A DNA stretch of 64,000 nucleotides from the NCBI RefSeq assembly GCF_009931435.1, contig NZ_CP043414.1. One strand, 5' to 3'. Below the pieces are notes generated by a model. That model was not told the DNA's origin. It did not search any database and saw nothing but the letters and a program-made list of their open reading frames with translations. Positions 2,847 through 37,640 of this stretch are shown here, piece by piece. How positions within the stretch are numbered: position 1 is the first letter of the stretch; each line of letters starts with the position of its first letter. The stretch comes from Escherichia coli. Its GTDB lineage: Bacteria > Pseudomonadota > Gammaproteobacteria > Enterobacterales > Enterobacteriaceae. The translations under genes were made by a program, and so were the position numbers.

Positions 2847-5036
2847 ATGCTTTACAAAGGCGACACCCTGTACCTTGACTGGCTGGAAGATGGCATTGCC
2901 GAACTGGTATTTGATGCCCCAGGTTCAGTTAATAAACTCGACACTGCGACCGTCGCCAGCCTCGGCGAGGCCATCGGCGTGCTGGAACAGCAATCAGATT
3001 TAAAAGGGCTGCTGCTGCGTTCGAATAAAGCAGCCTTTATCGTCGGTGCTGATATCACCGAATTCTTGTCCCTGTTCCTCGTTCCTGAAGAACAGTTAAG
3101 CCAGTGGCTGCATTTTGCCAATAGCGTGTTTAATCGCCTGGAAGATCTGCCGGTGCCGACCATTGCTGCCGTCAACGGCTATGCGCTGGGCGGTGGCTGC
3201 GAATGTGTGCTGGCGACCGATTATCGTCTGGCGACGCCAGATCTGCGCATCGGTCTGCCGGAAACCAAACTGGGCATTATGCCGGGCTTTGGCGGTTCTG
3301 TACGTATGCCACGTATGCTCGGTGCTGATAGTGCGCTGGAAATCATTGCCGCCGGTAAAGATGTCGGCGCGGATCAGGCGCTGAAAATCGGTCTGGTGGA
3401 TGGCGTAGTCAAAGCAGAAAAACTGGTTGAAGGCGCGAAGGCGATTTTACGTCAGGCTATTAACGGCGACCTCGACTGGAAAGCGAAACGTCAGCCGAAG
3501 CTGGAACCGCTAAAACTGAGCAAGATTGAAGCCACCATGAGCTTCACCATCGCTAAAGGAATGGTCGCACAAACAGCAGGGAAACATTACCCCGCACCCA
3601 TCACCGCAGTAAAAACCATTGAAGCGGCTGCCCGTTTTGGTCGTGAAGAAGCATTAAATCTGGAAAACAAAAGTTTTGTCCCGCTGGCGCATACCAACGA
3701 AGCTCGCGCACTGGTCGGCATTTTCCTTAACGATCAATATGTAAAAGGTAAAGCGAAGAAACTCACCAAAGATGTTGAAACCCCGAAACAGGCCGCTGTG
3801 CTGGGCGCAGGCATTATGGGCGGCGGCATCGCTTACCAGTCTGCGTGGAAAGGCGTGCCGGTTGTCATGAAAGATATCAACGACAAGTCGTTAACCCTCG
3901 GCATGACCGAAGCCGCGAAACTGCTGAACAAGCAGCTTGAGCGCGGCAAGATCGACGGTCTGAAACTGGCTGGCGTGATCTCCACGATTCATCCAACGCT
4001 CGACTACACCGGGTTTGATCGCGTGGACGTTGTGGTAGAAGCGGTTGTCGAAAACCCGAAAGTGAAAAAAGCCGTGCTGGCAGAAACCGAGCAGAAAGTA
4101 CGCCCGGATACCGTGCTGGCTTCCAATACTTCAACCATTCCTATCAGCGAACTGGCCAACGCGCTGGAACGCCCGGAAAACTTCTGCGGGATGCATTTCT
4201 TTAACCCAGTGCACCGGATGCCGTTGGTGGAAATTATTCGCGGTGAGAAAAGCTCCGACGAAACCATCGCGAAAGTTGTCGCATGGGCGAGCAAGATGGG
4301 TAAAACGCCAATTGTGGTTAATGACTGCCCCGGCTTCTTTGTTAACCGCGTGCTGTTCCCCTATTTCGCCGGTTTCAGCCAGCTGCTGCGCGACGGCGCG
4401 GATTTTCGCAAGATCGACAAAGTGATGGAAAAACAGTTCGGCTGGCCGATGGGTCCGGCATACTTGCTGGATGTCGTGGGCATTGATACCGCGCATCACG
4501 CCCAGGCAGTGATGGCAGCAGGTTTCCCGCAGCGGATGCAGAAAGATTATCGCGATGCCATCGACGCTCTGTTTGATGCCAACCGTTTTGGTCAGAAGAA
4601 CGGCCTTGGTTTCTGGCGTTATAAAGAAGACAGCAAAGGTAAGCCGAAGAAAGAAGAAGATGCCGCCGTTGACGACCTGCTGGCAGAAGTCAGCCAGCCG
4701 AAGCGAGATTTCAGCGAAGAAGAGATTATCGCCCGCATGATGATCCCGATGGTCAACGAAGTGGTGCGTTGTCTGGAGGAAGGCATTATCGCCACTCCGG
4801 CAGAAGTCGATATGGCACTGGTCTACGGCCTGGGCTTCCCTCCGTTCCACGGCGGCGCGTTCCGCTGGCTGGACACCCTCGGTAGCGCAAAATATCTCGA
4901 TATGGCACAACAATATCAGCACCTCGGCCCGCTGTATGAAGTGCCGGAAGGTCTGCGTAATAAAGCGCGTCATAATGAACCGTACTATCCCCCGGTTGAG
5001 CCAGCCCGTCCGGTTGGCGACCTGAAAACGGCTTAA
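2847..5036 (+). CDS. fadB: Fatty acid oxidation complex alpha subunit FadB (enoyl-CoA hydratase / 3-hydroxyacyl-CoA dehydrogenase)
   Basis: Track ORF 2649..5036 trimmed to the internal Met giving [32 protein letters not shown] (729 aa); AGGAG-like RBS upstream. Confidence 0.95.
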
Positions 5037-34788: not shown

Positions 34789-34922
34789 TTTTCTTCCTCT
34801 AATTATATGTAAATCCTATGGATTTTGAATTTAGGGAAGGCGGCAAGTTTATTCATCCCCGGGAGCTTACTGAAGTAAGTGACCGGGGTGAAGAAACGCA
34901 GCCAACGCACCATAAATTTAAA

Positions 34923-34960
34923 AGACGAAGGATTTTAGCCGTCCAGATGTTTACACATCC
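34923..34960. promoter_or_regulatory. Tandem MetJ 'met box'-like repeats in the metE-metR divergent control region
   Basis: Tandem 8-mers resembling AGACGTCT (AGACGAAG, AGCCGTCC, AGATGTTT, ACACATCC); MetJ repression of metE/metR is established. Confidence 0.45.
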
Positions 34961-35023
34961 ATAATTGGCGGTTACTGTATATTCCTCAAGCGCAAATTAT
35001 TCATGCCGAAGTGAAGGACTTTC

Positions 35024-35977
35024 ATGATCGAAGTAAAACACCTGAAAACGCTACAAGCGTTGCGGAACTGCGGCTCACTCGCAGCCGCTGCGGCGACGTT
35101 GCATCAAACGCAATCCGCCCTGTCTCACCAGTTTAGCGATCTGGAACAACGCCTTGGCTTCCGGCTATTTGTGCGTAAAAGCCAGCCGCTTCGGTTTACA
35201 CCGCAGGGAGAAATCCTGTTGCAACTGGCGAATCAGGTGCTGCCGCAAATCAGCCAGGCACTGCAAGCCTGCAATGAACCGCAGCAGACGCGCCTGCGCA
35301 TTGCCATTGAGTGCCATAGCTGTATTCAGTGGCTGACGCCCGCGTTAGAAAATTTCCATAAGAACTGGCCGCAGGTGGAGATGGATTTTAAATCGGGCGT
35401 GACGTTTGACCCGCAGCCCGCGTTGCAGCAGGGTGAGCTGGATCTGGTGATGACCTCCGATATTCTGCCACGCAGTGGCCTGCATTATTCGCCGATGTTC
35501 GATTATGAAGTGCGTCTGGTGTTGGCACCTGACCATCCACTGGCGACAAAAACGCGAATCACGCCGGAAGATCTCGCCAGCGAGACGCTGTTAATTTATC
35601 CGGTGCAGCGTAGCCGACTGGATGTCTGGCGGCATTTTCTTCAGCCCGCAGGCGTTAGCCCGTCACTGAAAAGCGTCGATAACACCTTGTTGTTGATTCA
35701 GATGGTTGCCGCACGGATGGGCATCGCTGCGCTACCGCACTGGGTGGTGGAGAGTTTTGAACGCCAGGGTCTGGTGGTCACCAAAACCCTGGGCGAAGGC
35801 TTGTGGAGCCGACTGTACGCCGCCGTGCGCGATGGCGAGCAGCGTCAGCCGATTACAGAAGCGTTTATTCGCTCAGCGCGCAATCACGCCTGCGATCATC
35901 TGCCGTTTGTGAAGAGCGCGGAGCGACCCACTTACGATGCACCCACAGTGAGGCCAGGATCACCAGCGCGCCTGTAA
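35024..35977 (+). CDS. metR: LysR-family activator MetR
   Basis: 317-aa [52 protein letters not shown]...; matches MetR. Confidence 0.95.
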
Positions 35978-36764
35978 TAAACGTTGGCCAGTGCGGCTGT
36001 TGGTGCCAGATAGCCAGGTTAACCAACAGCCCTGCCGGAACGTGCATATTATTCATAATGCCCAGCGTTCCGGCGTCCACCTGAGTCGCGCCGTAGTTCC
36101 ACATAAAGTAGCCAATCCCGGAGGCCACCACGCCAAGAAACACCAGAATGCCCCATTGCAGCGTGGTTTGCGGCATTTTCTGCGCATTTCCCAGCAAAAA
36201 CCATGCAATCACTGCCACCAGAAACGCGCCAAGATAGAACCACGCAAAGGCGTTATGCTGTGGCATCGGACGAGTTTCCATCAGGCGTTTGTAACCCACC
36301 ATGCCGATAGCAAAAGTGATATTGGAGAGTTGCACCAGCAGCAGGCCAGTCCAGAAGTGGTCGGTGACCTGATCATAGCGAATAATTCCGGCACCAATCA
36401 CCGCCAACAAGGCGCTAAAAGCATAGCCCCAGCGCAGACGGCGCTTACTCATGATGTCATAAATCAGCGTGATGTAGAGCGGCGTCAGTACGGTGAACAG
36501 CAACAGCTCGGAGACCGTCAGGTAGAGATAGGCGCGAAAACTCAGCATATACATCACGCCAAGCTGCATCGCGCCCACCAGCATATACAGACCGACCGTT
36601 TTCAGGCTATTGCCACGGGTACGCAGAAACGGCAGAAACACGAGTGCCGCCAGGCCAACGCGCACCAGCACTGCAAAATAGCTATCGACGTGCCCCGCAA
36701 GGTACTCGCCATAAAAGCTAAAGGAGAAGGCCCACAGAATCGTGGTGATGATAAGTAGCGCCAC
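35865..36764 (-). CDS. bioP: Biotin transporter BioP (YigM), EamA/DMT family
   Basis: Track ORF 35865..36839 trimmed to an in-frame GTG giving (M)[23 protein letters not shown]... (299 aa); 3' end overlaps metR convergently. Confidence 0.8.
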
Positions 36765-36839
36765 AATGGAAAACTCTTTGATTAACGAGTATCCATTGTA
36801 GCGAAGTATCAGGTTGACAACTGGCCAAATAAAGAACAA

Positions 36840-37640
36840 TTACGATAAATAGAGTTTACGCAGATAATGCGGCACCGCATCGTCGGCATTAGTACCAATC
36901 ACTTCCAGCTCCGGATGCAGATCTTTCAGACGCTGGTGCGCACTGCCCATAATGCAGCCTTTACCTGCCATCGACAGCATTTCGGCGTCGTTCATCCCGT
37001 CACCAAAGGCAATACAATCTTTCAGACTGTAGCCCAGTTTCTTCGCCACCGCTTCCAGGGCATGGCCTTTTGAAACGCCGCCCGCCATCACTTCCAGACA
37101 AGTTAGGGTAGAGAAGCTGACGTTGACGCGATCGCCCCAACGAGCGTTGATTGCCTGTTCCAGCGGCAGCAGTTGTTCATGAGAATCACAGGTGAAGAAC
37201 ACTTTGCTGACGCCTTCCGGATCCAGTAATCCTGGCTCATACAGCGCATATTTGAACACCGCTTCTTTAAAAAAGCGCATCTCTTCCGGGCGGTGGCGAT
37301 TCATAAACCATTCGTCGTCGCGATAAACGTTAGTAATGATGTCCGGGTTGTCGTTGACCACGCCAAACAGATCGCTGGCAATGTCGCGATCCAGGTTATG
37401 AGCAAAAATCAGATTGCCATCCAGATCATGAACGCGCGCGCCATTGGAGGTAATCATGTAAGACTTAATCTCCAGATTATCGCGAATTTGCCCCACATCA
37501 ACGTGGTGGCGACCGGTCGCAAACACAAAGTTAATGCCGCGCGCGGTGAGGAGCTTCAGAGTTTCTTTGGCGTAAGGGGATAACGTATGGTCGGGAGAAA
37601 GTAACGTGCCATCTAAATCAGACGCAACAACCTGGTACAT
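36840..37640 (-). CDS. yigL: HAD-family sugar/pyridoxal phosphatase YigL
   Basis: Track ORF 36840..37766 trimmed to MYQVVASDLDGTLLSPDHTLSPYAKETLK... (266 aa); DxDGT HAD motif. Confidence 0.9.
   Translation of the reverse strand: MYQVVASDLDGTLLSPDHTLSPYAKETLKLLTARGINFVFATGRHHVDVGQIRDNLEIKSYMITSNGARVHDLDGNLIFAHNLDRDIASDLFGVVNDNPDIITNVYRDDEWFMNRHRPEEMRFFKEAVFKYALYEPGLLDPEGVSKVFFTCDSHEQLLPLEQAINARWGDRVNVSFSTLTCLEVMAGGVSKGHALEAVAKKLGYSLKDCIAFGDGMNDAEMLSMAGKGCIMGSAHQRLKDLHPELEVIGTNADDAVPHYLRKLYLS

Follow-up and report, generated by a model that had tools for sequence, protein, structure and literature searches.

Most convergent gene overlaps amount to a few bases, and one of 113 bp is long for the class. 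In Escherichia coli, 58 convergent overlaps have been counted, with an intrinsic terminator predicted in only 20% of the genes concerned (Lillo & Krakauer 2007, PMC2174442). There are Rho-dependent transcripts with stable 3' ends just after stem-loops that lack a U-tract (U-less) and block exonucleases (Dar & Sorek 2018, PMC6061677). This study focused on the convergent genes metR and bioP (yigM) in a stretch of 64,000 nt of E. coli contig NZ_CP043414.1 (assembly GCF_009931435.1; hereafter the window, whose positions are used throughout unless stated otherwise), where the two coding sequences run into each other for 113 bp. BioP, or YigM, is a biotin transporter whose overlap with metR has been remarked on, and a metR deletion strain phenocopies the yigM mutant, being synthetic lethal with bioA and sensitive to the BioA inhibitor MAC13772, which was explained by the overlap (Cote et al. 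2016). The overlap itself is already annotated, published and ordinary in kind. What is added here is its conservation without gaps across most of the order, a clean division of constraint between two tails predicted to be disordered, and a conserved stem-loop of bioP within metR that had gone unremarked. We consider it probable that this is an ancient, frozen, tail-to-tail overlap between two unrelated genes, tolerated through dispensable protein tails, with the stem-loop at the 3' end of bioP lying inside metR.

The overlap and its conservation across Enterobacterales

The genes and their common segment are as follows.

35024..35977, plus strand: metR coding sequence (CDS), 317 aa and stop codon TAA (open reading frame (ORF) list, RefSeq annotation, Pfam, PDB 5fo5 and 4ab5)
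35865..36764, minus strand: bioP (yigM) CDS, GTG start at 36764, 299 aa and stop codon TAA (ORF list, RefSeq annotation)
35865..35977, both strands: convergent coding overlap of 113 bp, phase (123:132) (ORF list; 86-122 bp in 57 species)

The original prediction had placed a 113-bp convergent overlap at 35865-35977, and these coordinates proved exact and are the same in RefSeq; an identical overlap is annotated by RefSeq/PGAP in three inspected E. coli genomes, including K-12 MG1655 (bioP 4011076..4011975, plus; metR 4011863..4012816, minus). The two opposite-strand ORFs have their 3' nucleotides in common, so that the arrangement is a convergent coding overlap in the strict sense. It specifies MetR residues 281-317 and BioP residues 263-299, each with the stop codon, and places codon position 1 of metR opposite position 1 of bioP, 2 opposite 3, and 3 opposite 2. 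An earlier end of either ORF, named in the original prediction as grounds for abandoning it, was not found: with the stops taken directly from the sequence, no in-frame stop occurs further ahead in either frame. That both ORFs are genuine genes is seen from full-length family matches, solved MetR domains and the function of BioP (Cote et al. 2016). MetR has the Pfam domains HTH_1 (residues 5-63) and LysR_substrate (residues 86-288) and is homologous to solved structures over residues 1-92 (PDB 5fo5) and 87-296 (PDB 4ab5). BioP is a ten-helix EamA/DMT transporter in which the Pfam EamA domain ends at residue 275; it has 4289 homologues at E<=0.001, and the length is 299 aa in 104 of 120 among the matches listed.

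A check of conservation in related genomes had been proposed, and it bore the overlap out. A BioP profile search of Enterobacterales, with one genome per species, gave 80 loci, in 74 of which both gene ends were readable, and the stops of every locus were re-derived by following the two frames from their aligned starts. An overlap of 86-122 bp is present in 62 of these 74, distributed by length as follows.

113 bp, 38 loci: Enterobacteriaceae, Yersinia
116 bp, 11 loci: several Enterobacteriaceae; Rouxiella, Providencia, Morganella, Moellerella
95 bp, 7 loci: Rahnella, Pectobacteriaceae
122 bp, 2 loci: Edwardsiella
86 bp, 2 loci: Proteus
104 bp, 1 locus: a metagenome-assembled genome of Providencia
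89 bp, 1 locus: Hafnia

In 57 distinct species, which span the Enterobacteriaceae, Yersiniaceae, Pectobacteriaceae, Morganellaceae and Hafniaceae, the distance from the start of bioP to the start of metR is exactly 1741 bp and free of indels. Judged from this distribution, the overlap is older than the split of these five families, taking a branching order that is reportedly that of Adeolu and co-workers from 2016. The persistence of the overlap exceeds what chance would give; its length does not.

Several lineages have the genes apart. Budvicia has no overlap, with a 3-bp spacer, a BioP of 291 aa and a MetR of 298 aa, and this arrangement may be ancestral, the state before the overlap arose, or derived. 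Both Budvicia stops lie within a small palindrome, GCCTGA-nTA-TCAGGC (locus L080, ~4368-4386; L082 likewise), a shared hairpin that could serve both transcripts. In Serratia the genes are separate, with spacers of 4 bp and 36 bp in two species, and in S. silvae and Edaphovirga bioP and metR are 2.7-2.8 kb apart. Edaphovirga cremea (L064), which NCBI places in the Enterobacteriaceae, resembles Serratia in its MetR and BioP tails and its 2.7-kb gap. The Erwiniaceae lost the overlap because a 159-aa DUF1456 gene was inserted between the two genes, which are now 508-1074 bp apart (inserted gene at L058 4819-5298 and L050 4358-4837, both minus strand); in Pantoea the inserted gene overlaps the bioP stop by 4 bp. 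BioP homologues from outside the group, at ~50% identity, have no adjoining LysR gene, and the adjacency of bioP and metR appears to be confined to the order.

Constraint, stop codons and the two protein tails

With the codons in this phase, almost any silent change in one gene alters a residue of its partner, and the pattern of variation therefore shows which of the two proteins is under selection. Column entropies, in bits, were computed over the 57 gap-free species.

bioP-only DNA: 1.21 at bioP position 3/metR position 2; 0.14 at bioP position 2/metR position 3; 0.32 at position 1/position 1
Overlap, 35940-35977: 1.32 at bioP position 3/metR position 2; 0.30 at bioP position 2/metR position 3; 0.57 at position 1/position 1
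Overlap, 35865-35887: 0.31 at bioP position 3/metR position 2; 0.98 at bioP position 2/metR position 3; 0.53 at position 1/position 1
metR-only DNA: 0.14 at bioP position 3/metR position 2; 1.14 at bioP position 2/metR position 3; 0.29 at position 1/position 1
35918..35935, both strands: hand-over zone of ~18 nt, where the sliding-window entropy switches from metR-type on the left to bioP-type on the right and both wobble classes are intermediate

From 35936 to 35977 it is the wobble sites of bioP that vary, which leaves the MetR tail free, and from 35865 to ~35917 it is those of metR, which leaves the BioP tail free. Simultaneous constraint by two proteins could apply to ~18 nt (35918-35935) at most, and outside this zone a single protein constrains each nucleotide. 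Summed per codon, entropy is 1.97 bits in the overlap versus 1.67 in bioP-only and 1.57 in metR-only DNA, so that conservation in the overlap is no higher than on either side. The original prediction had the overlap constraining the evolution of both C-termini; this holds for length, for stop position and perhaps for the zone of ~18 nt or less, but elsewhere one tail is free. As far as the alignment tells, length and stop position are the real constraints, length because the overlapping lineages are gap-free while tail lengths vary once the genes have separated.

The stops of both genes are complements of partner codons.

35865..35867, minus strand: bioP stop TAA, complement of TT-A, formed by codon 281 of MetR (Phe, TTT) and the opening base of codon 282 (ATT/ACT)
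35975..35980, plus strand: tandem metR stops TAA TAA, complements of TT-A in BioP Ile263-Thr264 and Phe262-Ile263

The stop of metR (TAA/TGA) is the complement of BioP codon 263 (Ile/Leu; ATT, ATC, CTT, CTC) and the A that opens codon 264 (Thr/Ile/Met), and the lineages with a 116-bp overlap use the second metR stop. Since both stops complement conserved Phe-Ile(-Thr) codons of the partner, the overlap is pinned at 113 or 116 bp. The bioP stop is fixed as TAA in 54 of the 57 species. MetR Phe281 (35864-35866) is likewise TTT in 54 of 57, although TTC would still give bioP a TGA stop, and the near-invariant TAA may reflect stop-codon selection acting through a metR wobble site. In the antisense phase, stops occur at a rate of 0.061 per codon for the metR frame over bioP and 0.031 for the bioP frame over metR, and at those rates open runs of 16-29 and 17-24 codons are expected with a probability of 0.16-0.59. 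The lengths of the tails match simple chance read-through.

The tails occupy most of the overlap.

35927..35974, plus strand: codons of the MetR C-terminal tail, residues 302-317, predicted disordered and variable, antisense to transmembrane helix 10 of BioP (residues ~263-279)
35868..35918, minus strand: codons of the BioP C-terminal tail, residues 283-299, predicted disordered, antisense to the last helix and strand of MetR (residues ~282-298)

In AlphaFold2 models derived from the species alignments, confidence extends to residue ~301 of MetR and ~282 of BioP, and the predicted local distance difference test (pLDDT) is <50 for MetR 302-317 and BioP 283-299. The confidently folded parts of the two proteins meet at ~35919-35926, and their junction coincides with the hand-over zone. 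MetR residues 308-317 have residue entropies of 1.2-3.1 bits, except for S313 at 0.7, and P307 complements W274 of BioP together with the first base of V275; residues of the tail that seem conserved are, on the codon alignment, best taken as shadows of the partner protein. The models are consistent with a scheme in which the common DNA would encode only a disordered tail on one strand and, facing it, the last folded element of the partner protein: transmembrane helix 10 of BioP would have MetR 302-317 as its antisense reading, and the final helix and strand of MetR would have BioP 283-299 as theirs.

The lineages with separated genes point to dispensability. Both tails are short there, differ in length and show no sequence relationship: BioP stops 1-12 residues past ...HRRW(V/I), and after ...LPFVRDA MetR continues for 5-20 residues, mostly rich in Pro, Ser, Gly and Ala, with none in Budvicia. 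Taken by lineage, the MetR tail is shortened or replaced in Erwiniaceae and Rahnella and absent in Budvicia, the BioP tail is lost in Serratia, Erwiniaceae and Proteus, and tails are shortened, replaced or absent in Pectobacteriaceae too. Earlier stops in a few lineages (overlaps of 95, 86 and 104 bp) mean that loss of the distal tails is possible. BioP also occurs naturally in alleles of 284-285 aa that end in ...WVAPRSA or ...WVAPHS and are without the last 14-15 residues (cluster P0076, 285 aa, 66 members, Salmonella enterica serovar Gaminara; cluster P0075, 284 aa, 42 members); with them, the overlap would shrink to ~70 bp. Nucleotide homology of the separated lineages breaks at alignment block 828-848, which is the hand-over zone. 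A duplication of the overlap upon separation of the genes was considered and rejected: the two sides have only ~20 bp in common (this same block), which means that the break fell in the hand-over zone and that the distal tails were replaced, not duplicated.

A stem-loop on the bioP strand inside metR

With no intergenic DNA between the genes, each mRNA must end within the other gene. A consensus scan for intrinsic terminators found none near either stop; its single match, at 35578-35590 (plus strand), lies inside metR and was set aside as within the number expected from shuffled sequence. The main feature at the RNA level lies just outside the coordinates of the original prediction and was missed there.

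35809..35852, minus strand: conserved stem-loop of 14 pairs with one bulge and a 15-nt loop (RNAalifold; MG1655 4011988..4012031, plus strand)

It begins 13 nt past the bioP stop and is antisense within metR codons 262-276, outside the 113-bp overlap. When RNAalifold was run in 70-nt windows over both strands of the whole 1741-bp block of the 57 species, this element was a single outlier at -21.5 kcal/mol in the bioP sense; the next best window reached -7.1, the mean was -1.3 (sd 2.5), and the metR strand at the same site gave -6.0 kcal/mol. No other RNA structure of the block is strongly conserved. In the window itself the 44-nt element has a minimum free energy (MFE) of -25.3 kcal/mol, and the 151 nt after the bioP stop fold with a z-score of -3.35. 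No Rfam match was found within the feature.

In 29 species, 96.1% of the cells of the stem alignment are paired, and 10 of the 14 pairs vary, mostly in ways that are G-U compatible on the bioP strand only. One pair changes from CG to UA in 7 of the 29, and both changes are silent in MetR (L264 CTG to TTG, Q275 CAG to CAA). Comparison of species with the same MetR peptide gave the following.

Overlapping genes, 48 species: 13.46 of 14 pairs, mean MFE -25.1 kcal/mol
Separated genes, 10 species: 11.10 of 14 pairs, mean MFE -15.7 kcal/mol
Null, synonymous codons resampled with the codon usage of each species: 10.91 of 14 pairs

All 14 pairs were formed in 1.2% of the resampled draws, and the cross-species mean never exceeded 11.35. 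The difference between overlapping and separated genes has a Mann-Whitney p of ~1e-6 with shared ancestry ignored. The stem-loop is probably kept by selection on the synonymous sites of metR codons 262-276, as the codon-level comparisons suggest.

The stem-loop is followed by CUCCACAAGCC and has no U-tract, so that it is not an intrinsic terminator; as a stable, U-less stem-loop just past a CDS it has the make-up of a protective 3' stem-loop. The 100 nt after it are C-rich (C/G 1.73-1.78) and in this resemble a Rho utilization (rut) site. A selected rut site at this place was rejected, as the composition is identical with and without the overlap. Of the experimental 3'-end and double-stranded RNA entries covered, the only one to name either gene is a region of Rho termination within yigM that is sensitive to bicyclomycin. 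It is reported for the bioP strand, at MG1655 4011704, and its Rho score, computed in 800-nt windows, is 5.07, coverage going from 98 to 21 in untreated versus 300 to 326 in treated cells (Adams et al. 2021). By analogy with described transcripts, the most likely role of the stem-loop is to protect the 3' end of the bioP mRNA, with Rho termination beyond it; it would thereby both define and protect the 3' end of a Rho-terminated transcript.

Several points weigh against the interpretation of a tolerated overlap with a protective stem-loop. The disorder of the tails is a prediction, and their dispensability follows from the models and alignments with corresponding caution. The Rho region maps to ~36136, inside bioP and 271 nt before its stop, at a resolution of ~800 nt, and the C-richness after the stem-loop, being the same in the separated taxa, is a by-product of the MetR peptide and not selected. 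The text of the Term-seq supplement, which may be incomplete, holds no 3' end at MG1655 40118xx-40121xx, and metR and bioP are not named in the SMRT-Cappable-seq supplements, the text of which may also be incomplete (Yan et al. 2018). The set of separated genes represents only two or three independent events, compared here with no phylogenetic correction, and among the overlapping taxa the hairpin is weak in Hafnia (10/14) and Edwardsiella (10-11/14), which also have a different peptide. Finally, the phenotype of the metR deletion could stem from truncation of BioP, loss of the hairpin or interference by the resistance cassette.

The hairpin might instead position head-on collisions of RNA polymerases, or be a U-less terminator for the convergent pair, and not a shield against exonucleases. 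A stem-loop in the nascent RNA is needed for converging polymerases to collide at defined positions between convergent genes (Wang et al. 2022), and the hairpin studied here is strand-specific and tied to the overlap. We regard this as unlikely, given that described bidirectional terminators act on both strands and only one strand here has a well-conserved stem-loop, and that collisions would be rare if, as is probable, both genes are expressed weakly. The candidate on the other strand is the following.

35995..36031, plus strand: metR-sense hairpin, 18 nt past the stop of metR; 10-bp stem from the antisense of BioP Leu-Leu-Val and His/Gln-Gln-Gln codons

In E. coli this hairpin and another at 36033-36075 fold well (z -2.67 for the 151 nt after the metR stop), and the consensus is weak, at -7.5 kcal/mol order-wide and -11.8 within the Enterobacteriaceae. 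A selected 3' hairpin of metR was rejected, with 7.97 of 10 pairs formed against a codon-shuffle null of 7.22; pairing is barely above the null because Leu CTG pairs with Gln CAG, and the metR-side hairpin is probably a by-product of the BioP peptide.

The same might be asked of the bioP-strand stem-loop, as a coincidence of a conserved MetR peptide and codon bias that was inherited without being selected. Four of its 14 pairs are invariant and in eight only one partner varies, shuffling yields 94.9% pairing from the composition of the columns alone, and the species are related. It seems rather improbable all the same: resampling of codons gives 10.9 pairs where 13.46 are observed, separated lineages with the same peptide are at the null, the wobble sites of the stretch vary at a normal rate (1.0-1.3 bits), and the opposite strand scores far worse. 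Protection of the bioP 3' end remains our preferred account of the stem-loop.

The surroundings of the pair add a few observations. Its flanking genes are metE, yigL and pldB. The only Rfam match, a sub-threshold one to V_AS5, a Vibrio antisense RNA, lies between metE and metR (34814-34932, plus; 28.7 bits against a gathering threshold of 96, E 0.0024) and is probably due to chance. Of 5426 complete E. coli genomes, 5425 match a 2-kb region around the locus, with an identity of 95-99%. Positions 34900-36900 of the window are 98.9% identical to strain 2013C-4282 and ~96.3-96.8% to most other E. coli, a pattern that suggests a divergent lineage or a recombinant segment. In E. coli Z135-6 (NZ_CP159632.1) only 43% of the query is matched, in two pieces, and the locus looks interrupted, its metR side being annotated as 'hypothetical protein' and 'LysR family transcriptional regulator'.

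Regulatory readings and known systems

Overlap of the two transcripts in antisense, as the original prediction had it, follows of necessity from the coding overlap. ExcludonFinder places bioP-metR among the convergent excludons of MG1655, a core set of 165 that were called in 50% or more of 58 RNA-seq samples (PMC12288877). The overlap could on these grounds be a selected regulatory device, an excludon in which metR and bioP, convergently transcribed and with mRNAs complementary over 113 nt or more, antagonize each other through polymerase interference or RNase III and so couple methionine and S-adenosylmethionine (SAM) to biotin uptake, and conservation of the arrangement across five families would fit. 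Biotin synthesis consumes SAM, which makes such a link conceivable. We find this reading unlikely: at least two lineages, Serratia and Erwiniaceae, have separated the genes and retained both, sequence conservation within the overlap does not exceed what one protein per site accounts for, and the listing is automatic for overlapping CDSs and carries no data on reciprocity of expression. Neither gene (metR, yigM, bioP) is named in the supplements on p19-captured double-stranded RNA, for which low expression could be the reason (Huang et al. 2020). There is a similarly slight chance of a selected post-transcriptional module, in which the stem-loop would set the stability of the bioP mRNA and sense-antisense pairing over at least 169 nt (35809-35977) would make the expression of metR and bioP reciprocally dependent; if true, the supply of SAM would be hard-wired to the decision whether to make biotin, at the expense of SAM, or to import it. 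Long convergent overlaps in prokaryote annotations are often mispredictions, yet an artefact in which one ORF ends earlier and no true coding overlap exists can be dismissed here, as the stops are read directly with none earlier in either frame, errors of start codons cannot affect a 3'-3' overlap, and both genes are experimentally characterized, with full-length family matches and ORF ends conserved over 57 species.

Taken as a frozen overlap with a stem-loop, the locus is a worked example of a long antisense overlap persisting across a bacterial order at almost no cost. It has practical consequences as well. Deletion of metR also disables biotin uptake (Cote et al. 2016), and recoding or refactoring the 3' end of either gene changes the other. 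The 'silent' sites of metR codons 262-276 are probably not silent, since they carry the 3' structure of a neighbour's mRNA, which makes the stem-loop relevant to reading synonymous variation and to genome design.

Compared with the systems already described, metR-bioP is closest in form to the convergent overlapping genes of phase (123:132), with opposite-strand ORFs that have their 3' ends in common and terminators inside the partner CDS (Lillo & Krakauer 2007, PMC2174442), and it differs from that class in its order-wide conservation in a gap-free frame. It resembles excludons in being listed as a convergent one of E. coli MG1655 (NAR 2025, PMC12288877), but in the classical case it is untranslated regions that overlap, and expression is reciprocal, whereas here the overlap lies in the coding regions themselves. 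Extension of C-termini by stop loss or read-through, that is, overprinting, is similar in that the tail lengths fit the next chance stop and the tails are predicted to be disordered and variable, and both proteins are short in Budvicia, where 3 bp lie between the genes. The stem-loop itself is like the protective type in being a stable, U-less structure shortly after a stop, followed by C-rich RNA, in a gene for which a region of bicyclomycin-sensitive termination is reported (Dar & Sorek 2018, PMC6061677); it differs from that type in sitting within the CDS of another gene, through whose synonymous sites it would be maintained.

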